From Anaerolineae bacterium (GTDB lineage Bacteria > Chloroflexota > Anaerolineae > CG2-30-64-16): a stretch of 64,000 nucleotides of DNA. The notes beneath the pieces are model-generated. The model was not told the origin of the DNA. It saw only the letters and a program-made list of their open reading frames with translations, and ran no database searches. A program made the position numbers and the translations under genes. Shown in pieces: positions 3,876-34,061 of this stretch. The stretch is taken from positions 18,827 to 82,826 of the forward strand of contig DAOUBP010000162.1 of the NCBI GenBank assembly GCA_034432655.1, given 5' to 3'. The stretch's first letter is position 1, and every line of letters begins with the position of its first letter.

Positions 3876-5087
3876 TCACAGCCTCGGGTTCGTATACTCG
3901 TTCCCGATCAACTCCCGTGCGATGATCATGCGCATAATGTTCATGCCGCCCTCGGCGCCGATGGAGTAGGAACGGACCCCGCGAATCCCCATCTCGATGG
4001 GGTACTCAGTCGTGTAGCCCATCGCGCCCAGCCAGTTAGCCACCTCGTTGAAGGTCTCAAATGCCATGATGGGCGCGCGCAGCTTGGCCATTGCACCATA
4101 CAAAGCGACGTCACGATGCTTGAATGTGCCCTTGCTGTACATCTCGTCCGCCATCCACGCGGCCTTATAAGTCAACAACCGTGCCGCCTCGATATCGGTA
4201 AAACGCTCGGCGGCCGGGAAGTTGATCCCCTGAAACGCAGCCAGTGGCTTACCGAACGCCTTGCGCTGGCGGATATACTCCACCCCCATCTGCAAGGCGG
4301 TCTCCGCGGCGCCGCAGCAGGTCGCGCCGATCAACGCGCGTGCATAAGTGTAGCCTTCCATCGCGTAGTAGAAACCGCGTCCGACCTCGCCGATCCGGTA
4401 GTGATCGGATAACGGCAGGTTCTCCATGTTGAACCCACCGGTGGAGATGCCGGTGCGGCCCCAGTTATGGATCAGCGTGGTGGTAATGTGCGGGTTATCT
4501 TTGATGGGCACGGCGAAGAAGGTGAAGCCCTTGTGGCCGGCCTCAGGGTCGGTGCGTACCAGCGTCATATACGCGCCGCCCATACGCAGCGATTCCTTGA
4601 TGCCGCTGATATACAGCTTCTCGCCGTTGAGCACCCAGTTGCCGTCCGCAGTGCGTTCGGCCCGGGAGCGCGTTGCGCCCTCGATATCGGAACCGCCGCT
4701 CGGCTCGGTGGACGCAATGCCCAGGAACGCTTTGCCGGCTGTCACTGCAGGCAAGATCTCTTCTTTGAGTGCCTCGCTGGCGTAGCGCTCAAAGACAAAG
4801 CCCCAACTGGCCTGCACCAGGTACATCACCGGGATCGCCAGGCTGATGTCGGCCCGGCCCAATTCCTCGGCCGCAATAGTAGCCATGGTCATGTTCATGC
4901 CCTGGCCGCCGTATTTCTCGGACACCGTCGGCGCCCACAGTCCCATGTCGGCCATCCCCTTGATGATCTCCTCAGGGATGTGATGGCCGCTGTCAATCTC
5001 GCGCACGCGCGGCGCGATCTTCTTTTGCGCAAAGTCGCGCACGGCCTTGCGCCACATCTGTTGCTCTTCGGTCCAACCGAAATCCAT
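3876..5087 (-). CDS. Acyl-CoA dehydrogenase family protein
   Basis: MDFGWTEEQQ, YGGQG, TEPSGGSD, LNGEKLYIS, RKAFGKPL, C-terminal AEGGMNIMRMIIAR. Confidence 0.92.
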   Translation of the reverse strand: MDFGWTEEQQMWRKAVRDFAQKKIAPRVREIDSGHHIPEEIIKGMADMGLWAPTVSEKYGGQGMNMTMATIAAEELGRADISLAIPVMYLVQASWGFVFERYASEALKEEILPAVTAGKAFLGIASTEPSGGSDIEGATRSRAERTADGNWVLNGEKLYISGIKESLRMGGAYMTLVRTDPEAGHKGFTFFAVPIKDNPHITTTLIHNWGRTGISTGGFNMENLPLSDHYRIGEVGRGFYYAMEGYTYARALIGATCCGAAETALQMGVEYIRQRKAFGKPLAAFQGINFPAAERFTDIEAARLLTYKAAWMADEMYSKGTFKHRDVALYGAMAKLRAPIMAFETFNEVANWLGAMGYTTEYPIEMGIRGVRSYSIGAEGGMNIMRMIIARELIGNEYTNPRL

Positions 5088-8991: not shown

Positions 8992-9876
8992 CTACGCAAG
9001 GCCATGCTGCAGCTTGAACGCGCGCACCGTATTCGTCAGCAGCATGGCGATCGTCATCGGCCCCACGCCGCCGGGGACGGGGGTGATGTAACTTGCCACC
9101 TCGACCGCCTCGCTGAACGCGACGTCGCCCACCAGGCGGAACCCGCTCTTCTTGGTGGGATCGTCAATTCGATTGATGCCGACATCTATGACCACTGCGC
9201 CGGGCTTGATCCAGTCCCCGCGCACGTACTCAGGCCGGCCGATGGCTGCTACCACGATGTCTCCCCGCCGCACCTTGTCGGGTAGATCGCGCGTCTTGCT
9301 GTGGCAGACGGTGACCGTGGCGTCGGCGTTTTGCAGCAACGCTGCCACCGGCACACCCACGATGTTGCTGCGGCCCACCACCACCGCATCCTTCCCGGCG
9401 ATCTCGATGCCGGAGCGGACGAGCAGCTCGATGCAGCCGGCCGGCGTGCACGGGATGAACTGCGGCGTGCGTCCCTTCATGACCAGTTGGCCGATGTTCA
9501 TCGGATGGAATCCATCCACGTCCTTGTCCAGGCTGATCAGGTCAAGCACGCGCTGTTCGTTCAACCCTTTGGGCAAAGGCAGCTGCACCAGGATGCCGTT
9601 GACGGTCGGGTCGGCGTTGAGGGCGCGCACCAGGTCCTCCAGCTCCGCCTGGCTGATAGTCGCCGGCAGGCGATGGGTGATCGAACCCATGCCGGCCTCT
9701 TCACACGCCTTACCTTTAGAAGCCACATAGGTCTGCGAGGCCGGGTTGTCGCCCACCAGCACGGCCGCCAGGGTCGGCACCTGGCCGGTCAGCGCCTTGA
9801 GCCGGGCCGCTTCGGCCGCGGCCTCCTGGCGCACGGCTTCGGCGATGGCCTTGCCGTCAATAAGTTTCGCTGTCAT
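8992..9876 (-). CDS. folD: Bifunctional methylene-THF dehydrogenase/cyclohydrolase
   Basis: [59 protein letters not shown]. Confidence 0.98.
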
Positions 9877-25148: not shown

Positions 25149-27428
25149 TTAGAAAATCGGATCCATCATCAACGCCGGATGGCCGACCGCTTCCAGATGG
25201 GCCAACAGCCCGTCCACATCGGTGCAGATCGTCTCATCGGCGATCTTGCTGATCAGGTCGGGATCGCCTTCCCGCTCGGCCACCTTCTGGAGTTCCTCGG
25301 CCATGGTCTGCTTCAGGATGCTGGACATCCAGACGACGCGCTTGAAGCCGCCGTCGGCCGAGATGAACTTGGGGCTGGTCAGGTAATACTTGCCCACGCC
25401 CATCACGCCCGGGGTCTGCAGGCCGCCGCCGGCCATGCCGGCCAGGGTCGAGAACGTCATGCCGGCCGGGGTCATGCTGGGATCTTCGCGGCTCACCACC
25501 ATCACGCCGTTGGCTTCAGGGATCAGCATCACGATGCACTCGAAGCAACCGCAGGCCGTCATCGGGCTGGTCATGATGGAGTACATGGCCACCTCTTGCA
25601 CGGTGCCGTTCGACTTCTGTTGGGCGATCTCGTTGAGGCCGGCGTAGATGCCTTTCTCGCGGTCAATCACCATCCCTTTGCGCACCGGCTGGTTCGGCCC
25701 GGTCGGATTAATCTGGTAGGACGCGGCGCAGTCCAGGTAGTTGTATGCGCCACACAGGCCCAGCCGCTGTGGGCTGACCAGACACACATGGGTCGGCGCG
25801 AAGGACTGGCACAGCGTGCAGGTGTAGAACTCCTCCACCGCTTCATCGGTCAGGTCGGCCAGGCGGCGATTACGGTAGTCGTAGGCCTCACGCGCCTTCT
25901 GCAGCCACTCGGCATGCAGCGCCGGGTCGGTGATGAGCTTGACCTGTACCTTGTCCACAATTGCGCCGAAATCCGCCATGAAGCGAGCGTGCAGAATATC
26001 GCCGAAGTGTTTGAGGGTAAAGCCCTTGTCGGCCGCCGCCTTGCTGATCCGGATCCAGGTGATGTCGCGCTGACCGATGTGCTGGATGCCGCTGGCCCCG
26101 TTGATGAAGTAGTGGATTTGGCGTTCCAGCACCGGCTCGAAGTCCTTCTGCATCTTCCGGCCGGCCACTTCCACCAGGATGCCCAGGTCCATGGCGCCGC
26201 CCACCGGCACATCTTCGAAACCGGGGCCGATCACCTCGATCTTGCCGTCCTCCACCTGATCCATGTCCACCATGCGCAGGTACTCGAACGCGCGGCTGTA
26301 CTTACCGCCGAACTCGACGCGCATGTCGGCCTTGCGCACTACTTCGCCCTCAAACGCGGAACCGTAAGGCACCGGGATCGGTACTTCGGTCAGCTTGATC
26401 TTGACCCCGCGGGTCTCGATGCACTTCTGGACCAGCTTCTCGGCCCGCTCCAGATCGTCCTTGCCTTCGATCTCGTTGAATGGCATGGAGATGACATGCT
26501 CATAGGTGGTGACGCCGGTAGGCAAGATCTGCGGGATGCGGGTATCAGCGATGACCGGGAAGCCGTAGTTGATGGCGCCGGCCGCGGCCGCATACTTCAG
26601 ATCATCCACTTCGCCCAGCGCCAACACAAACGCGAACACGCGCGCCCGGTTGTACAAGAGGATTTCCTTGGCCTGGCCGCCTTTCAGGCCGCCGAAAGTC
26701 AGCGCAGAACGGGTGGCGAAGCCGATGGGGTAAATGGCCGAGAGGGTGTCCAGGCCGAACGGCACGATGTACGTGTCATAGCCCATCTCCACGCCCTCTT
26801 CCATCAGCTGATGGATCACCGAGCGGCCGTTCACGTTGCCGCACAGGAAGATCAGGATGTTACGCCGCTGCAGCTCGCGCACAATCTTGACCGCCACCTC
26901 GTTGCTCTTGGCGCAGCCGACGATGGCTGCGAAGCCCGGCATGCGGCCATCTACCAGCTGGATGCCCCAAGCGCGCAGCTGGACGTCATCAATCGGGCCG
27001 TTCAACCGGCCATTGCCGTCCCCTGCTTCGCCATCAGGGCTGGTGAAGCTGCCGCCCGTCATGCGCAAACCGGGCAGCCGGCCCGGTTCCTCGCCATACA
27101 CAAAGCGGATCGCCTCGATGGTCTCGGCGGCCAGCAACGTCGCAATGCCACAGTCCAACGTCTCGCCCAGATAGGGGGTCCAGCATTGGGTGGTGGGCAC
27201 GGGATGCAGCAAGTCCCTGGCGTGCTCCAAGACGGGCTTCAGTTGACCCAGCTTGCTGACTTCGCGGCCGGTCAGGCCCAGAATGGTCGGCAGGTAATAG
27301 GCAGTGTTCGGAAAAGCGACCGGGGTTTCGGGACCTTTTTCACGGAGCGCCTTTTCCAACAGCGCCTCAGCCTCGGCCACAATCAAGTTTGCGCCGCGGA
27401 TGGCACGGGTAGCGATGTAACGTGACAT
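25149..27428 (-). CDS. acsB: Acetyl-CoA synthase (bacterial-type, A-cluster)
   Basis: FPNTAYYLP, ERQIHYFIN, YTCTLCQSFAPTHVC, GLCGA, MTACGCFEC. Confidence 0.97.
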   Translation of the reverse strand: MSRYIATRAIRGANLIVAEAEALLEKALREKGPETPVAFPNTAYYLPTILGLTGREVSKLGQLKPVLEHARDLLHPVPTTQCWTPYLGETLDCGIATLLAAETIEAIRFVYGEEPGRLPGLRMTGGSFTSPDGEAGDGNGRLNGPIDDVQLRAWGIQLVDGRMPGFAAIVGCAKSNEVAVKIVRELQRRNILIFLCGNVNGRSVIHQLMEEGVEMGYDTYIVPFGLDTLSAIYPIGFATRSALTFGGLKGGQAKEILLYNRARVFAFVLALGEVDDLKYAAAAGAINYGFPVIADTRIPQILPTGVTTYEHVISMPFNEIEGKDDLERAEKLVQKCIETRGVKIKLTEVPIPVPYGSAFEGEVVRKADMRVEFGGKYSRAFEYLRMVDMDQVEDGKIEVIGPGFEDVPVGGAMDLGILVEVAGRKMQKDFEPVLERQIHYFINGASGIQHIGQRDITWIRISKAAADKGFTLKHFGDILHARFMADFGAIVDKVQVKLITDPALHAEWLQKAREAYDYRNRRLADLTDEAVEEFYTCTLCQSFAPTHVCLVSPQRLGLCGAYNYLDCAASYQINPTGPNQPVRKGMVIDREKGIYAGLNEIAQQKSNGTVQEVAMYSIMTSPMTACGCFECIVMLIPEANGVMVVSREDPSMTPAGMTFSTLAGMAGGGLQTPGVMGVGKYYLTSPKFISADGGFKRVVWMSSILKQTMAEELQKVAEREGDPDLISKIADETICTDVDGLLAHLEAVGHPALMMDPIF

Positions 27429-27535: not shown

Positions 27536-29524
27536 TTATCCGTACAACTCCGCCATCTGCTCTTCCAGCGGCTCCTCCAGGAATACCTGGATCGGCACAT
27601 CGCCGGAGGCACCGAAACGAGAAGGATCATAAGGCGGCAGCTTGAGCGCAGCGCGTTTCTTGTCAATGTGTTCCAGTGTGCGGCGGACGATCTCATCCGC
27701 TTCGGTTACAAACTCCAGCTTGCCACCGAAGCGCTCTTCCCACTCCTGGGACAGGATATGGGAAACCGTATCGGAGAACTCCACCGGATTGCGCACGCCC
27801 ATGATCACATATGCCCCGGAGCCGACACAGTAAGTCGCAATGGCCAACGCTTTCTCGCTCATCCATTCGGGTGCCAGGCCCACGGCGGGGATGTCACTGA
27901 TGTCATCGCCCAGGCCCCCTTCCGTGGCCATCTGGCTCAATACCGTGAGGATGCGGCTGTTATCCACGCAGGAACCCAGGTGCAGCACGGGCGGGATGCC
28001 GATGGCCTCGCACACCTCGCGCAGGCCAGGCCCGACCTTTTCAGGATCGAGAGCGGTCGAGCCCTTAAGATAACCGTATTTGCCCGCCGCAATCGCGCCG
28101 CAGCCGGTGCTGACCACCAGCACGTCGTTCTTCAACAGCTGCGTCACCACGTCCATATGGACCTGGTCCTGGGTCAATGCCGGGTTGTTGCAGCCCACAT
28201 CGGCGGCCACCCCGCGGATGCGGCCGGCTGCAATGGCATCGTTCAGCGGCCGGAAGGAGGCGCGGTAACTGCCGCCCTGCATGTAGGCCAGATACTCGTG
28301 GCTGAAACCGGGCACCACATCCTCGTAGATGTTCTGGGGGATGCGCGTCTCCCCGCGGTTGACATAGTTGTCGCAGGCACGGCGCACGATACTCTTGGCA
28401 ATATCCAGCGCCCGGTGTTCGTCGAACTCAATATGCGTTGCGCCGGTGATCCTGACCTTGGGGCTAGTGGTGATGATCTCGGTGTGGAAGTGCTTCGCCA
28501 CATCGGTCAACGATTGCATAATGCACTGCACATCCACCACCATTGCCTCTACCGCGCCCGTGAGGATGGCCAGCTCCTGATTGAGGAAGTTGCCGGCCGA
28601 GGGGATCCCCTGGCGCATCATCACTTCGTTGGAGGTGCAGCAGATGCCGGCCAGGTTGATGCCTTTGGCCCCTTTGCTCTTCGCATATTCCAGCAGCTCT
28701 GGATCCTGGACAGCCGCCACGATCATCTCACTGAGGGTGGGCTCATGGCCGTGGACGATGATGTTCACCTCATCATCCTTCAAGCATCCCAGGTTCACCC
28801 GGCCTACCTTTGGGCTGGGTGTGCCGAACAGGATATCGGAGATATCGGTGGCCCACATCGAGCCGCCCCAACCATCGGCCAATGCCGTGCGCACCGCGGC
28901 CAACAGGATATGGCTGGCGTCCTGGTCATCGCCCATGTGGGTGCGATGGAGGATCTCTACCACTTCGCGGTCAATGCCGCGGGGGACCACCTTCTGATCG
29001 CGCCAGATCTTCTGGCGTTTCGGCGGTGCGATCGAGATATAGCTCAGCTCCCCGCGCTGTTGGCCGAACTCGCTGATGGCCTTATTCGCAACATCCAGGG
29101 CGATCTCCTTGATCGTGCGGCCCTTGGTGGGGATGTTGTGTTTGGCAGCCACAGCGAGAAGCTTGGCCTCATCGCGGATCTCATAACCCTGTGCTTCGCC
29201 CTTGGCCACGGCCTGGAGCGTAAAAGCCAGATCGCGGCCGTGATCTGAGTGAGCCGCCGCGCCGGCCGCAATGGCACGCGCCAGGTTACGTGCGGCGATG
29301 GTCTCCAGGGTGGCGCCGCAAATGCCTACCTGTCCGTCCTTGGTGATACGGCAGGGCCCCATATAGCAGTTCTTGCAGCACACGCCCGCCTGTCCACTGC
29401 CGATAGTGCAGGGCTTATGCTCCGCCGCACGACTGAACGAGGTCGGGATGCCCATCGCGGTCGCAAAATCCAAGACATAGCACGCGGCGGGGTCAATCGT
29501 CGGAACGATCTTTTGCTTAGCCAT
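27536..29524 (-). CDS. cooS: Anaerobic Ni-CO dehydrogenase catalytic subunit (CooS/AcsA)
   Basis: CCKNCYMGPC (B cluster); C-cluster ligand motifs HGHEP, ICCTSNE, DVQC, GCNN, TGCG, GSCVD; MSEKA. Confidence 0.97.
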   Translation of the reverse strand: MAKQKIVPTIDPAACYVLDFATAMGIPTSFSRAAEHKPCTIGSGQAGVCCKNCYMGPCRITKDGQVGICGATLETIAARNLARAIAAGAAAHSDHGRDLAFTLQAVAKGEAQGYEIRDEAKLLAVAAKHNIPTKGRTIKEIALDVANKAISEFGQQRGELSYISIAPPKRQKIWRDQKVVPRGIDREVVEILHRTHMGDDQDASHILLAAVRTALADGWGGSMWATDISDILFGTPSPKVGRVNLGCLKDDEVNIIVHGHEPTLSEMIVAAVQDPELLEYAKSKGAKGINLAGICCTSNEVMMRQGIPSAGNFLNQELAILTGAVEAMVVDVQCIMQSLTDVAKHFHTEIITTSPKVRITGATHIEFDEHRALDIAKSIVRRACDNYVNRGETRIPQNIYEDVVPGFSHEYLAYMQGGSYRASFRPLNDAIAAGRIRGVAADVGCNNPALTQDQVHMDVVTQLLKNDVLVVSTGCGAIAAGKYGYLKGSTALDPEKVGPGLREVCEAIGIPPVLHLGSCVDNSRILTVLSQMATEGGLGDDISDIPAVGLAPEWMSEKALAIATYCVGSGAYVIMGVRNPVEFSDTVSHILSQEWEERFGGKLEFVTEADEIVRRTLEHIDKKRAALKLPPYDPSRFGASGDVPIQVFLEEPLEEQMAELYG

Positions 29525-29537
29525 AACTCAGCCTCCT

Positions 29538-30158
29538 TTATGATTTCTTGGCATCCCGCGGGTCAGTGCGGGTCTGGCGGAACCCCAAGCGATCCCATGC
29601 CGGATCTTTGCGGCCATCCTGCACAGGCACGGGCTGGGCGATCACCCCGCTGCCATCTGTGGCAACAGGATAGCCGGCCTCCTCCAGGGCCGCCATGAGG
29701 GCGCCAGGACTGACGACTGCCGGATCGTACGAAATGACAACCATACGGAAGGCGGAGCTGGCAATGACGTCTTGGACCCCGGGTGTGTTGGTCAGGACGT
29801 CTCGCACCTTCAGCGTGTGGTGATCTGCCCATAGGTTTGGCACATTGAATTGAACTTTTTCGACCACAGACCTGCCTCCTTGGGGTGAACTGAGATAGCG
29901 GACTGATTCGGGCGCCGCAGACCCCGGCGCAGCTTGTGCAATTGCCAGGATCTCGCGGCGATGCTCAAGATAGATTTGGCAAAAATCGCATGAAACGTGC
30001 AGGGGTGCACAACAACAGGCTTCCCCTCGACACTGCTCCCAACACGACAAACCGGAGTCGAGCAACAGACACTCGGCACAGGTGAATGACCAGCCGTCAT
30101 GCTTGCCGTTGCCTGTCTGGTGTAACAGGTCCTGCCTGATTTGCCAACACGTCCGCAC
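29538..30158 (-). CDS. Cys-rich (two CW motifs) domain in frame with a His-type HMA-like domain; alternative GTG start at 29867 gives the HMA domain alone
   Basis: HMA fold pattern VQFNVPNLWADHHTLKVRDVL...PGVQDVIAS...ISYDP...LEEAGY; RBS GGAGG 7 nt before GTG 29867; N-terminal 60 aa hold 10 Cys. Confidence 0.65.
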   Translation of the reverse strand: MRTCWQIRQDLLHQTGNGKHDGWSFTCAECLLLDSGLSCWEQCRGEACCCAPLHVSCDFCQIYLEHRREILAIAQAAPGSAAPESVRYLSSPQGGRSVVEKVQFNVPNLWADHHTLKVRDVLTNTPGVQDVIASSAFRMVVISYDPAVVSPGALMAALEEAGYPVATDGSGVIAQPVPVQDGRKDPAWDRLGFRQTRTDPRDAKKS

Positions 30159-30297
30159 AGGGAGAAACCCTTTCTAACAACAATCAGGCTCAGAAATGGC
30201 CTGAGCTATCTCCTGCGGCGAACATCACGAAGTTTGCCATGATCTCGCCTTACATACTATGATGCCCATCATGCTCAAGCATACAAAACACAGAAAT

Positions 30298-30339
30298 AAA
30301 AAAAACGCCTGCCCGCGCAAAAACGCCCGGGCAGGCGTT
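30298..30339 (-). terminator. Intrinsic terminator upstream of the CODH/ACS operon
   Basis: 12-bp stem AACGCCTGCCCG/CGGGCAGGCGTT; minus-strand T8 tract (first two T pair in the stem). Confidence 0.85.
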
Positions 30340-30342
30340 CGT

Positions 30343-30405
30343 CACCTGTCGTTGGTGCAGGCCGCCATCAGCCTGCTGCTTGGATATGACGAATGTAATA
30401 TATCA
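30343..30405 (-). promoter_or_regulatory. Extended -10 box plus two tandem hairpins (candidate ANTAR-type leader)
   Basis: TGaTATATT at 30405-30397; hairpin GCAGGCT-GATGGC-GGCCTGC (30376-30357); hairpin CACC-AACGACA-GGTG (30357-30343). Confidence 0.55.
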
Positions 30406-30448
30406 GAAGACGACAGAGTGCACTATGATCGGCGTCAGGTTTGGCCGG

Positions 30449-31027
30449 TCATAACAGCTGATCCGCCAGCACGATGGCCTGCGCCACCTCGGCCAGCTTA
30501 CGATTGGTATCCTGGCTCTGACGTTGAAGCCGACGGAACGCTTCCTCTTCGGTCAGGTTGAGACGGCGCATCAAGATGCCTTTGGCCCGCTCGATCACCT
30601 TGCGCGCCTCCAATGCCTCGCGCAGGTCGGCCACCTCTTGCCGCAGAGCTTGAAATTCACGAAAACGCGCCAGGGCCAGGGTGATAGCCGGCAACAGATC
30701 CTCCTCGGCCACGGGTTTCATCAGATAGGCCGAGACGTTGGCGCGGGCGGCCCGTTCTACCAGCTGTGATTCACTGTACGCGGTCAAGAGGATGATGGGG
30801 ATGGGCCGCATTTGCGTGATCTGCTCGGCCGCCTCGATCCCATCCATGACGGGCATCTTAATGTCGAGGATGGCCAGGTCCGGTTGTGTCTGTCGCGCCA
30901 GAGCCACCGCTTCTGCGCCCGTGGTCGCTTCAGCAACCACCTGGTGGCCCAACGCCGTCAACTGGGCTCGCAGGCTGAGCAGGCGGATGCTCTCGTCATC
31001 AGCGATCAAAATGCGCAGTGGCTGCAT
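30449..31027 (-). CDS. Response regulator with REC + ANTAR RNA-binding domain (PdtaR/EutV-like)
   Basis: ILIADDE, PDLAILDIKMPVMDG, YLMKP; EARKVIERAKGILM...EEEAFRRLQRQSQDTNRKL. Confidence 0.96.
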   Translation of the reverse strand: MQPLRILIADDESIRLLSLRAQLTALGHQVVAEATTGAEAVALARQTQPDLAILDIKMPVMDGIEAAEQITQMRPIPIILLTAYSESQLVERAARANVSAYLMKPVAEEDLLPAITLALARFREFQALRQEVADLREALEARKVIERAKGILMRRLNLTEEEAFRRLQRQSQDTNRKLAEVAQAIVLADQLL

Positions 31028-31030
31028 CGT

Positions 31031-32212
31031 CTACTTGTAAAAGACCAGGGTGACCTGACTGCCGCCGTTTTTCCCGGGCTCGAAGCGCAACGTGCCGGCC
31101 AGATCTTTTTCCACCAGAGTACGCACGATCTGCAGGCCCAGCCCGCGCGTGCGGCCGATGTCGAAATCGGAAGGCAGCCCCCGGCCGTTGTCGCTGACCG
31201 TCACCGTCACCTGGGGGCCCTCCTGTGCCAGGCGGATTTCCAGCCGGCCGTGCTGTCCCACAAAACTGAAGGCGTGCTCCAATGCGTTGGAGATCAGCTC
31301 GTTCATCACCAGGGCCAGGGCCGTAGCCTGCTTGGATGGCAGGTAGATCGGCGGCCCCTCAATGATGGCTTCCACGCGTTGGTCCGGCCGCACCAGGTGG
31401 CGCAGCGAGATGTCGCATACCTGGCGAGCCAGCTCGGTGATATCGGTCAGCCGGATGTTCTCTGCCGAAAGGAGTTGATGCACTGCTCCGATGCTTTTGA
31501 TGCGCGTAATACTGTCGCGTAGGCTCTTGCGCGCAGCAGGGCTGGGGCTGGCCGACATCTCCAGGCTCAAGAGGTCTGCCACGGTCTGCAAGTTGTTCTT
31601 AATGCGATGGTGCATTTCCTGGAGCAATGTGGTCAGCGCCTCAGCCTGACGCGCCTCCTCACGTAGCCGCATGTTCTCCAGCGCAATGCCCATCTGCGCA
31701 GCTACGGAGCGCAACAGTGCCATGTCGCCCTCACTGAACGGCGCGCCCTGGCGATTGGCGACGTGCAGCACCCCCAGGGCGCGCTCTTTTGCCAACAACG
31801 GCACTGCGGCACATGCATAGCCCCGGTAACGACGGCAGCCGTGCTGGAGCACTTCGGCCGCCTGCTCTGCGCCCAATGCGGTAAAAGGATCGCCCGCGAC
31901 GGCAACCAGGTCGCAGGCGCAGAACTCGGCCGCTTCCGACGCACTGCCTGGGGCCCCAGGCAGCGGCTCCCCTTCAGCTGCAGCCAGGACCAGGCGGCCG
32001 GCGGCCGCATCCCATAAGTAAATGCGGCCGCTTGCCAGTTTCAAAACCGGCAACACCTGCTTCAGCGCCTGCGAGAGGGCCTCCTGCTCGGTCAGTGCCT
32101 GGTTAATCGCTGCGGCGACCGCGTAGAGGGCCGCCAGCTCACGCGTCCGTCGCTGATCTTCAGCCGACGTATTGATCTGCTGCGCGTTGACCTCTGAGAC
32201 TCCGATCCCCAT
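31031..32212 (-). CDS. GAF-domain sensor histidine kinase, HisKA_2 type (PdtaS/EutW-like)
   Basis: GAF segment (AVPLLAKERALGVLHVA), QEMHHRIKNNLQ, ELISNALEHAF, VSDNGRGLP, GLGLQIV. Confidence 0.94.
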   Translation of the reverse strand: MGIGVSEVNAQQINTSAEDQRRTRELAALYAVAAAINQALTEQEALSQALKQVLPVLKLASGRIYLWDAAAGRLVLAAAEGEPLPGAPGSASEAAEFCACDLVAVAGDPFTALGAEQAAEVLQHGCRRYRGYACAAVPLLAKERALGVLHVANRQGAPFSEGDMALLRSVAAQMGIALENMRLREEARQAEALTTLLQEMHHRIKNNLQTVADLLSLEMSASPSPAARKSLRDSITRIKSIGAVHQLLSAENIRLTDITELARQVCDISLRHLVRPDQRVEAIIEGPPIYLPSKQATALALVMNELISNALEHAFSFVGQHGRLEIRLAQEGPQVTVTVSDNGRGLPSDFDIGRTRGLGLQIVRTLVEKDLAGTLRFEPGKNGGSQVTLVFYK

Positions 32213-32221
32213 TCCGTGTGA

Positions 32222-32416
32222 TCACTTCTGCTCGCCGGCCGCCCCCTCAACCTTCTCTTCCTTTTTCTCGGATTTGTCAGGCTCGCGCGAAGCCTCGCGA
32301 AACTCACGAATGCTCCGGCCAATTGCGCCGCCGATCTCAGGTAGCCGGCCCACACCGAACACGATGAGAACGATCACCAACAAGATGAGCCATTCCCAGC
32401 CGCCAAGATTAAACAT
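32222..32416 (-). CDS. tatA: Twin-arginine translocase TatA/E subunit
   Basis: LGGWEWLILLVIVLIVFGVGRLPEIGGAIGRSIREFR. Confidence 0.93.
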   Translation of the reverse strand: MFNLGGWEWLILLVIVLIVFGVGRLPEIGGAIGRSIREFREASREPDKSEKKEEKVEGAAGEQK

Positions 32417-32430
32417 CTTCTTCACGCTCC

Positions 32431-33978
32431 TCACTTGGATGATTTTCTACGCTGCGTTTGCAGCAATGCTGCCGCTTCAAACCCGAGCGTAACCAACCGC
32501 TGCATGAAAGGCACCTCCTCCGGCGGTCGGTCGCGCAGCTGAGCAGCTGCCAGCCGGGCCAGGGCGGCTGCCTTGGGGTCACGAGCCACTGCCAGCCAGA
32601 GCGCCATCCGTTCCAGGCGGCTCTGATAGGCAGTGGCCATTTCGGGCCCAAACCGCTGTCTCAGAAATTGCGTCATGACGGCCGCACGGTCGTGGCCTTG
32701 TCCCACAAAAGGCACGGCTTCTTCGGCCAGCGCAGCCCACCAGCTCCAAAAGGCAGGGTGGTTCACCAAAGCTGCGGTGGCATCAGGCTCCGCCTCGGCT
32801 TGCCGTCCGGGAACCTCGGCGGCCGTTTCCGGTGCTGATGCCGTCTGACCCGAAACGGCCAGCCACAACGGCAGGTTCAACAGACGATAAGGCACCGGTG
32901 TGGGCGTCGCACTGGCCCAGTTCAACGCCAGCGCCTCCTGCAGAAACTGCTGCCCAATCGCCAGGGGCGCTTCCAACAAGAGCAGCCCATCATGCTGCTG
33001 ATCAAAGGCCACCTGATGCAATGTGCCGACCGGCTGCTCACCGGGCAGGTCTGTTACCGCCATGCTCAGGGAACCTGACGCCGCACTGACGCCTTTGCCT
33101 TCCTCCAGCAGGAGGCTGATCAACAGGGCGCGTTCTTCGGCCGGTACACGGCCGACAAACCAAAGAAGCTGCGCACCGGTGCCATCTACCGGCGAGACCA
33201 AAGCCCGCCATTCACGGCCAGGCACGAACCAGGGCCGATCCATGGTGTCGGCCTCGTCGGCGAGGCTTACACCGCTCAGAGCCAGCTTACGGACCCCGCG
33301 CTCGGCCAGTGACGCCAGGGAAGGCGGCAACGTCTTCGCCAGGGCGGCCAGCGCACGCGCCGCCGCAGGGGAGCGGATGCGCCCCAGATGCTCCAAAGCA
33401 CTGCGGGCCAGCCTGGCATCGGAACCCTGGGCCAACATCCGCAACAAAGTGATCAAAGCCCCGGTGACCGGCGCAGCAGGCACGGCTTGCAGCAGCAAAT
33501 GCGGCACATCCGGCGGCTGCTCTTCCAGCTGTGCCAGGTATTCGAGGATGCTCAGCGGCTCTTGCGCCATGGTCCTGGCCAACTCATCCAACGAGCGCAG
33601 GGCAGTCGCCTCCGGGCTCTCCAGGCTGTCCAACAACGCCTCGTCGGGAGGTTCGTTGAAGTAACGGTCCAGGATGATCAGGGCGGTCAGGCGGGCCTGC
33701 GGGCTGCGTTCACGCGCGCGGGCGGCCGCCCGCAGCGCCGCAAGCACCTGGGCGCGCGGCAGCCGAAGCGCCACCTGTCCCAAACCGCCGCGCAGCTGCG
33801 GATCGTCGGTGTCCAGCGCGGCGATCAGCGCGGCCAGCGCGACGTTGCCATGCTGCGCGATAGCGTTTGCGCGCTCGGCCAGCTGGCCAGGGTCTGTGAT
33901 GGCAGCCAGCTCCGCGATCGCAGCGTCCACAGCACGTCGCTCGGCCAGGCCGGTCAAAATCTTCGCTTCCGAACTCAT
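32431..33978 (-). CDS. Hypothetical helical protein (HEAT-like N-terminus)
   Basis: Long Ala/Leu-rich ORF co-oriented with tatA; no family motif recognised. Confidence 0.7.
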   Translation of the reverse strand: MSSEAKILTGLAERRAVDAAIAELAAITDPGQLAERANAIAQHGNVALAALIAALDTDDPQLRGGLGQVALRLPRAQVLAALRAAARARERSPQARLTALIILDRYFNEPPDEALLDSLESPEATALRSLDELARTMAQEPLSILEYLAQLEEQPPDVPHLLLQAVPAAPVTGALITLLRMLAQGSDARLARSALEHLGRIRSPAAARALAALAKTLPPSLASLAERGVRKLALSGVSLADEADTMDRPWFVPGREWRALVSPVDGTGAQLLWFVGRVPAEERALLISLLLEEGKGVSAASGSLSMAVTDLPGEQPVGTLHQVAFDQQHDGLLLLEAPLAIGQQFLQEALALNWASATPTPVPYRLLNLPLWLAVSGQTASAPETAAEVPGRQAEAEPDATAALVNHPAFWSWWAALAEEAVPFVGQGHDRAAVMTQFLRQRFGPEMATAYQSRLERMALWLAVARDPKAAALARLAAAQLRDRPPEEVPFMQRLVTLGFEAAALLQTQRRKSSK

Positions 33979-33987
33979 TGTAGTAAA

Positions 33988-33996
33988 ATTATAGCA
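33988..33996 (-). promoter_or_regulatory. Extended -10 element TGcTATAAT
   Basis: Exact match 9 nt upstream of ATG 33978, suggesting a near-leaderless transcript. Confidence 0.6.
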
Positions 33997-34061
33997 CACA
34001 AGCCGGCCCACAAGAAACAGGCGCCAAGCGCGCCGATCAGACAGGAGAACAAGAGCCCGTC

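Follow-up and report, generated by a model that had tools for sequence, protein, structure and literature searches.

A published target of an ANTAR regulator comprises two hairpins with six-nucleotide loops, carrying A at position 1 (A1) and G at position 4 (G4), that are separated by a linker of 2–25 nt and placed so that the second hairpin overlaps a terminator (PMC3369931, PMC8164766). A1 mutants lose EutV function (PMC3369931), and the structure of EutV bound to RNA identified G4 as the sole base-specific contact (PMC8934654). The targets given in reviews concern amide, nitrate and ethanolamine, together with Rv1626 (PMC12591593). Here we describe a leader found in a 64,000-nt stretch of an Anaerolineae genome (Chloroflexota; assembly GCA_034432655.1, contig DAOUBP010000162.1, positions 18,827–82,826; hereafter the window), where it lies between a kinase/ANTAR-regulator gene pair and the operon for carbon monoxide dehydrogenase (CODH) and acetyl-CoA synthase (ACS) of the Wood–Ljungdahl pathway. 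We read it as an ANTAR-type attenuator with variant loops, probably run by the adjacent PdtaR-like regulator, and assign this reading a probability of roughly 0.5.

Several features of the locus recall EutW/EutV and the Enterococcus faecalis eutP, eutG, eutS and eutA leaders (PMC3369931, PMC8934654): a regulator with REC and ANTAR domains is encoded beside its candidate target, and the leader contains two small hairpins with similar loops (P1 and P2'), joined by a short linker of fixed length, with G4 in the loops, the second hairpin overlapping the 5' arm of a terminator and termination as the predicted default. Unlike in the EutV leaders, the loops begin with G1 rather than A1, an invariant U.G pair closes them, the P2' loop is 7 nt long, the promoter is accompanied by a CRP/FNR-like site and, in the window, a second promoter-like module follows the terminator; unlike EutV, the regulator has a glutamine at the Met172 position and its candidate target is CODH/ACS, not ethanolamine utilization. 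The proteins themselves resemble Mycobacterium tuberculosis PdtaS/PdtaR (Rv3220c/Rv1626; PMC12132213), Rv1626 being the best solved relative of the regulator and PdtaS, like the kinase found here, a soluble GAF plus HisKA_2 protein with GAF cysteines. In contrast to that system, the kinase and regulator genes are adjacent here but unlinked in M. tuberculosis, the window kinase has no detected PAS domain, and a glutamine stands where actinobacterial PdtaR has the equivalent of Met172. The RNAs of actinobacterial PdtaR-type systems reportedly act chiefly at the level of translation (PMC8164766, bioRxiv 660928). The proposed arrangement shares its logic with NasR–nasF and AmiR–amiE (PMC7496416, PMC12591593), where an ANTAR protein acting via two hairpins blocks the leader terminator of a metabolic operon, although there the loops carry A1 and G4 and sensing is direct (NIT domain) or via AmiC, whereas the present system has a kinase and a receiver domain.

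A conserved leader and terminator ahead of the operon

The genes of the locus run in the order tatA, kinase, REC-ANTAR regulator, spacer, orf206, CODH and ACS, all on the minus strand (Table 1); gene calls and Pfam thus agree with an initial annotation of the window, made from the sequence alone, which had placed a kinase/ANTAR-regulator pair upstream and a CODH/ACS operon downstream. Within the 290-nt spacer between the regulator and orf206, a 106-nt leader folds with a predicted free energy of -53.4 kcal/mol, compared with -33.0 +/- 3.4 kcal/mol for shuffled sequences (z = -5.98; none of 200 shuffles was as good). Its helices were assessed by aligning 12 leaders (alignment A3, checked by hand) and running 500 shuffles and slid controls. 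Hairpin P1, whose loop spans 6 nt (GAUGGC) with the U.G pair closed and 8 nt without it, is paired in 100% of the alignment cells, with one compensatory change from G-C to A-U (in locus L166) and two G.U pairs, and the loop is conserved as U-G-A-Y-G-N-N-G. The 12-bp stem of the terminator is paired in 98.5% of the cells. Three pairs of P1 and five of the terminator have changed on both sides, values that none of the 500 shuffles reached, and the slid controls lowered the paired cells to 24–47%. Both hairpins, noted initially in the window, recur in 12 other loci and show compensatory changes, which is the covariation in relatives that had been suggested as a check.

The terminator combines a GC-rich hairpin with an immediate U-tract, as expected of an intrinsic terminator, and represents both the full-length minimum free energy (MFE) structure and the RNAalifold consensus. 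It ends 143 nt before the GTG start of orf206 (30158) in the window, close to the ~140 nt first estimated. A simple terminator scanner missed it because of its 12-nt loop and reported a weaker site (30206–30188) that was no better than chance. Two further pairings had been envisaged in the initial annotation. The 5' arm of P1 is indeed complementary to GCCUGC in the terminator, but in L166 P1 reads GCAGAC/GUCUGC while the terminator GCCUGC is unchanged, and this P1-specific compensation speaks against use of the pairing. The short competing hairpin AACGCC/GGCGUU relies on a terminator loop peculiar to the window and does not occur in the other loci.

No Rfam 15 family matched at its gathering score anywhere in the window, and a permissive search (E <= 10) with three leaders gave unrelated low-scoring matches only, none reaching E = 0.001 and none of them NiCo or mini-ykkC, so the comparison with riboswitch models that had been proposed, NiCo included, yielded no family for the leader. 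A small-ligand riboswitch, either of the two-hairpin type (guanidine-II) or a metal sensor (NiCo), would suit the nickel enzyme downstream and the two small hairpins with conserved loops (A-Y-G-N when fully zipped), which superficially resemble mini-ykkC. However, the loops are not ACGR and there is no multi-helix junction to form a ligand pocket, which together with the Rfam results makes this explanation very improbable.

To gather relatives, we scanned genomes with the regulator and metagenomes with CODH, and collected orf206 homologues with their contigs; those relatives that carry an organism name are Chloroflexota metagenome-assembled genomes (MAGs). The genome scan returned 80 loci from many phyla (the closest regulators being 71% and 70% identical), none with CODH beside the regulator, indicating that the regulator–CODH pairing is lineage-specific. 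The metagenome scan gave one syntenic locus, L081, in which the leader core is kept. Altogether, the leader lies directly 5' of orf206–CODH–ACS in 13 distinct loci (the window and 12 metagenomic ones), and all 13 unique loci contain an upstream palindrome, a -10 element, P1, linker, P2' and terminator together; it was not found in the more distant CODH loci L082–L160. Of the 13 leader loci, 9 encode the regulator (81–86% identical) no more than 4 kb upstream, compared with none of 33 leaderless CODH loci, each with at least 3.5 kb of upstream sequence; this association is real and limited to one clade.

The start codon and Shine-Dalgarno sequence follow the terminator at 14–20 nt in six compact relatives (L167, L168, L169, L172, L178 and L180), which leaves no room for a second promoter, so operon expression there requires read-through of the terminator. 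Moreover, the leader is still found before the operon where other sequence parts it from the regulator, namely ~500 bp of HNH/DUF433-like sequence after the regulator stop codon in L081, an opposite-strand MFS gene in L161 and toxin-antitoxin-type genes in L164 and L167, and also when unrelated genes stand upstream with no regulator nearby (L168, L169 and L181). The terminator is thus not merely that of the tatA-kinase-regulator mRNA, the circumstance under which the idea of gating was to be abandoned. Another such circumstance, an operon promoter 3' of the terminator, is matched in the window by a candidate module (B), whereas the six compact loci have no space for one. These findings make it improbable that the terminator is constitutive, ending the tatA-kinase-regulator mRNA and a ~95-nt small RNA from the leader promoter (A) while the window operon is run from promoter B. 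Such an arrangement would accommodate the absence of any terminator between the regulator stop codon and the leader, the degenerate palindrome 1 of the window, and the second palindrome with TGGCAAACT that lies 3' of the terminator in the same 29.5-nt geometry and is kept in L161 and L166, but it leaves the invariant CAGGU-GRYGA segment unexplained. We consider it likely that the element is a regulated terminator.

Attenuation by a leader peptide was also weighed and rejected. The AUG in the P1 loop of the window (30368–30366) starts a frame of 8 codons closed by the UGA of CAGGUGA, and the in-frame UGA is kept in several relatives; against this, the AUG reads ACG in 5 of the 13 loci, has no Shine-Dalgarno sequence and lies within a stable hairpin loop, and the frame is not intact in L161 and L165.

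The second hairpin and the loop motif

In the initial annotation the second hairpin was drawn as CACC-AACGACA-GGUG. This structure can form in the window and 86% of the cells of its ACC/GGU core pair across relatives (A3), but its 5' arm lies in the variable linker and has no compensatory change, and its loop A1 and G4 are lost in relatives (for example CGGCACA in L081), so it was discarded as a conserved element. The conserved second hairpin is instead P2', formed by the sequence CAGGU-G-R-Y-G-A-N-N-GCCUG directly 3' of the linker, with invariant arms and with loop positions G1, G4 and A5 invariant despite the variable linker alongside. The linker has 8 nt in 12 of the 13 loci (9 nt in L161, and 12 nt in the outside locus L001 described below), within the range of published ANTAR targets. 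The support for P2' comes from its invariance beside a variable linker, from the constant length of that linker, and from its relation to the terminator: GCCUG (30336–30332) is common to the P2' 3' arm and the terminator 5' arm, the two structures are mutually exclusive, and truncated and full-length folds switch between them. RNAalifold gives P1 and P2' on an alignment that ends before the terminator 3' arm and P1 and the terminator on the full alignment. In the same way, the nascent transcripts of L169, L161 and L166 have P1 plus P2' as their MFE structure (P2' alone contributing -5 to -8 kcal/mol), whereas at full length the terminator is favored by 8–15 kcal/mol. We regard P2' as the probable antiterminator. 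An outer stem, UUCGUCA/UGACGAA (30393–30387 with 30344–30338), is part of the MFE of the truncated window transcript but is absent in relatives, and was set aside.

The U.G closing pair is invariant in both hairpins, and both loops start with G-R-Y-G (GAYGNN in P1, GRYGAAC in P2'); ViennaRNA zips both of them further, to 4–5 nt. When 14 P1 and 14 P2' loops are counted, with L001 included, position 4 is G in all 28, as in ANTAR targets. The dual-hairpin fit first proposed, as an imperfect one, for this leader thus survives in its layout and in G4, provided that the second hairpin is redrawn as P2', and is lost for A1 and for the length of the P2' loop. An alternative register, GGUG-AACGCC-UGCC, has A1 and G4 in 10 of the 13 loci and cannot form in the window, L161 or L166.

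A covariance model trained on the leaders had one match beyond them, L001 (31 bits, E ~3e-8), a Chloroflexota MAG whose regulator is the closest homologue in the genome collection, at 71% identity; the score of 46.7 bits with a dual-hairpin model was obtained when the training set already included L001. In L001, GACAC-UGAUGAGG-GUGUC follows a perfect TTGACA-17-TATAAT promoter and carries the same loop as P1 on a wholly different stem; next comes a second element, GGUGGAGACCGCC, that overlaps the base of an unrelated 17-bp terminator. Downstream of the L001 leader (9166–9276, minus strand; loop UGAUGNNG) comes a Rieske/cytochrome b/multihaem cytochrome c operon, and a homologous kinase/regulator pair is encoded 5 kb from the leader. 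L001 stands alone and has a less clear second hairpin, yet it suggests recognition of the loop motif rather than of the CODH context.

Candidate operators and the proposed switch

The window regulator combines REC and ANTAR domains with full-length similarity to PDB Rv1626 (PdtaR; 4.2e-47, residues 3–185), and thereby conforms to the PdtaR type; EutV follows at 1e-39, likewise along its full length. The EutV residues that contact RNA (Y164, R168, M172, N173, R175 and R177) correspond to F, Q, Q, D, N and K, and the orthologues and the L001 protein deviate from the window regulator solely at the fourth and sixth of these positions. EutV Met172 has been proposed as a determinant of loop size (PMC8934654). 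Actinobacterial PdtaR homologues keep Met at this position, while Gln is frequent among the sampled homologues from Chloroflexota, Armatimonadota, Planctomycetota and other phyla; a change from Met to Gln would be compatible with a shifted loop preference.

Pfam detected no PAS domain in the kinase, and no match to the solved PdtaS domains was obtained at E <= 1e-5. Its GAF domain contains a cluster of cysteines, CxC...C...C (CxC, GCR, ACAAVP), that is kept in 5 of 7 orthologues. PdtaS, a constitutively active kinase, is inhibited by Cu or NO via its GAF cysteines (PMC12132213); by analogy, a redox, metal or gas signal is plausible for the kinase described here. Among the relatives, the cluster is kept in L161, L165, L166 and L178 and lost in L172 (1586–2977) and L180 (852–2243), whose kinases have a hydrophobic N-terminal extension of ~70 residues instead.

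A number of observations weigh against an ANTAR-type attenuator run by this regulator. All 28 loops have G at position 1, so the element is not a canonical ANTAR target, and the P2' loop has 7 nt (8 in L161) where the consensus is a hexaloop. In the regulator, Met172, Arg168 and Arg175 of EutV are replaced by Gln, Gln and Asn. Four of the 13 leader loci have no regulator within the 2–5 kb of upstream sequence, and all 13 belong to one clade (CODH 79–87% identical), so that the association between regulator and leader is confounded by shared ancestry and could reflect inherited gene order. P2' never varies in the 13 loci, and covariation consequently neither supports it nor counts against it. 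A generic descriptor for U.G-closed GRYG loops recovered no additional dual hairpins around 78 other regulator homologues or in the rest of the window; this descriptor and model R2, applied to the window and the regulator loci, returned only the training sites and chance intragenic matches with 3-bp stems; a 7-bp match in L061 was dismissed, as it lies within a glutamate synthase gene. Lastly, promoter B, if active, could bypass the switch, and only part of the operon transcription would then be gated in the window.

The lack of the consensus A1 and of the Met172 "plug", the four loci without a regulator and the single clade speak for the view that the same P2'/terminator switch is worked by another RNA-binding protein, a small RNA or polymerase pausing, with the regulator adjacent only through inherited gene order. 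We deem this conceivable but unlikely: the layout is specific to ANTAR targets, the one base that EutV contacts specifically in its RNA, G4 (PMC8934654), is invariant, L001 has the same loop motif and a homologous kinase/regulator at a different operon, and no other RNA-binding protein was seen to be conserved in the neighborhood among the relatives' loci. The neighboring regulator has about even odds of being the binding factor. As for the original proposal that the kinase/ANTAR pair gates the Wood–Ljungdahl operon, the conserved promoter-proximal leader and the strong terminator hold, and the second hairpin as first drawn and A1 do not.

In the attenuator we favor, transcription from promoter A, the operon's own promoter within the spacer, together with read-through from the tatA-kinase-regulator unit, would produce a leader of ~95 nt in which P1 folds first and P2' second. 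Once the distal arm is made, the 12-bp terminator would displace the weaker P2' and transcription would stop at the U-tract, termination thereby being the default state. A protein binding both similar loops (the U.G closing pair followed by G-R-Y-G) would hold P2', keep GCCUG from the terminator and allow RNA polymerase to read into orf206–CODH–ACS; the likeliest binder would be the phosphorylated REC-ANTAR regulator encoded just upstream, controlled by the Cys-rich GAF kinase. The switch would gate all operon transcription in the six compact relatives and, given module B between the terminator and orf206 in the window, L161 and L166, part of it in the window. A broader version of this idea, which we offer tentatively and hold to be rather doubtful, is that a "Gln-type" branch of PdtaR-like ANTAR proteins reads a shifted code (the U.G closing pair and G-R-Y-G, with G1/G4 for A1/G4) and gates CODH/ACS and, in a relative, Rieske/cytochrome b, when the four-cysteine GAF kinase reads a redox, metal or gas signal.

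To our knowledge, little has been established about the regulation of the Wood–Ljungdahl pathway beyond a few model acetogens, and next to nothing in uncultured Chloroflexota. No paper connecting ANTAR regulators with CODH/ACS or the Wood–Ljungdahl pathway came up in a full-text literature search; ANTAR-type control would be new for this pathway, where it has not been described before. If the proposal is true, it would supply a clear natural antitermination target for PdtaS/PdtaR-type systems, whose RNA targets and signals are debated, and widen the ANTAR recognition code, in which case motif searches that require A1 would miss such targets. It would also place a costly, oxygen-sensitive nickel enzyme complex under two layers of control, at initiation (the CRP/FNR-like site) and at elongation (the attenuator). 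The conserved motif is short and could be tested in vitro with three purified components.

Promoter modules and gene neighborhood

The extended -10 that was annotated initially for promoter A is present in the window, and its homologous position is conserved in the 12 other loci, where the element reads TGGCATACT, TGACATACT or TGGCATATT and its hexamer is CATACT, TATATT or CATATT, usually after TGn. The only invariant alignment columns 5' of P1 are A2 and T6 of the hexamer and the TGA...TCAT of palindrome 1 (consensus aaACATGACnnGCGTCATTG), the center of which stands 29.5 nt before the -10 hexamer, equivalent to about -41.5. This conserved palindrome and the hexamer columns back the annotated -10 and support a predicted transcription start at ~30390. 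Palindrome 2, the sole zero-mismatch match within the 64-kb window, has the same 29.5-nt spacing to TGGCAAACT, so both modules have the geometry of a class II CRP/FNR-type promoter (TGA-N6-TCA centered at about -41.5 of a sigma-70-type -10). A CRP/FNR-like candidate factor probably binds palindrome 1, to judge from this arrangement; no CRP/FNR gene was found among the ~50 window open reading frames (ORFs) scanned. The repeated palindrome and extended -10 (30423–30439 and 30257–30273) have the appearance of a tandemly duplicated CRP/FNR-type promoter module.

CooA-type coo operons have a palindromic site ~40 nt 5' of the transcription start, as at class II CRP/FNR promoters. Like the CODH operons controlled by CooA or RcoM, the genes described here stand behind a palindrome ~40 nt upstream of the (predicted) start, although the half-site ATGAC...GTCAT differs from what we take to be the CooA site. 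Unlike the present leader, with its terminator, CooA and RcoM act on initiation only, and the scanned window ORFs include no CRP/FNR-family gene.

Table 1. Coordinates of the leader, promoter elements and genes (positions in the window)
Feature	Position	Strand	Evidence or remark
Hairpin P1, GCAGGC / UGAUGGCG / GCCUGC	30357-30376	-	All cells pair; compensatory change
Linker P1–P2', ACCAACGA	30349-30356	-	Sequence varies, length constant
Hairpin P2', CAGGU / GACGAAC / GCCUG, candidate antiterminator	30332-30348	-	Invariant, pairable in 13/13 loci
Intrinsic terminator, 12-bp stem AACGCCUGCCCG/CGGGCAGGCGUU (30339-30328 with 30315-30304), 12-nt loop, U8 (30303-30296)	30296-30339	-	
Palindrome 1, CCTGACGCCGATCATAG (TGA-N6-TCA, CRP/FNR-like)	30423-30439	-	TGA/TCAT columns invariant, 13 loci
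Extended -10 of promoter A, TGATATATT	30397-30405	-	Hexamer A2 and T6 invariant in relatives
Palindrome 2, CATGATGGGCATCATAG (perfect), 3' of terminator	30257-30273	-	Kept in L161, L166
Extended -10 of putative promoter B, TGGCAAACT	30231-30239	-	Kept in L161, L166
526-aa ORF	32431-34011	-	Upstream of tatA
tatA, first gene of the tatA-kinase-regulator unit	32222-32434	-	Pfam TatA_B_E 2.5e-19
Soluble histidine kinase, GAF + HisKA_2 + HATPase_c, PdtaS-like	31031-32212	-	Pfam; alignment with 6 orthologues
REC-ANTAR response regulator, PdtaR/EutV type	30449-31027	-	Pfam Response_reg + ANTAR
orf206, 206 aa, first operon gene, Cys-rich N-terminus and HMA-like domain (weak match)	29538-30158	-	
CODH (acsA)	27536-29524	-	Pfam Prismane 1.4e-159
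ACS (acsB)	25149-27428	-	ACS_CODH_B_C/CdhC

Downstream of ACS, genes for a CBS protein, corrinoid protein subunits, RACo, CooC, a pterin-binding methyltransferase, FolD and MTHFR extend to ~6836, and the window cluster is a complete Wood–Ljungdahl cluster. The GTG start of orf206 was set by the conserved N-terminus (M)RxCWQIRQ. The N-terminal pattern of this protein is CWQIRQ...CAEC...C...C...CCC...C..C and its C-terminal HMA-like domain lacks a CxxC motif; orf206 (named "CopZ" by JGI) is always the first CODH/ACS operon gene in the clade studied, and may encode a metallochaperone or sensor for nickel enzymes. The position of tatA is kept in L081, L161, L165, L166, L172, L178 and L180. It stands directly 5' of the kinase/regulator pair in all syntenic loci and, in the distant L002 (6878–7060), just 3' of the regulator, which hints at a conserved tatA–PdtaSR linkage.

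The spacer between regulator and leader is an insertion hotspot (L081 3470–3970; L164 1789–3354; L167 1169–1750; L161 2287–3570), with insertions that comprise HNH/DUF433 fragments, DUF433-PIN, HicA, DUF2283 and DUF4160/DUF2442 genes and an MFS transporter gene. In L081 a repeat-like element, GTCATTGCGAGGAGCG...CGAAGCAATCC (4128–4165), occupies the place where palindrome 2 would stand and looks like a miniature insertion. A 16-codon ORF in the window, MANFVMFAAGDSSGHF (30190–30240, minus strand), starts within the -10 of putative promoter B, ends in a 7-bp hairpin (30206–30188) and is probably spurious. L178 (2888–3079) and L180 (2331–2522) have a 63-aa ORF between kinase and regulator that is absent from the window. 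Finally, the CODH/ACS genes are broken into several pieces in the ENA contigs L180 (4940–6761) and L181 (5727–10091), for which assembly indels are more likely than real pseudogenes.

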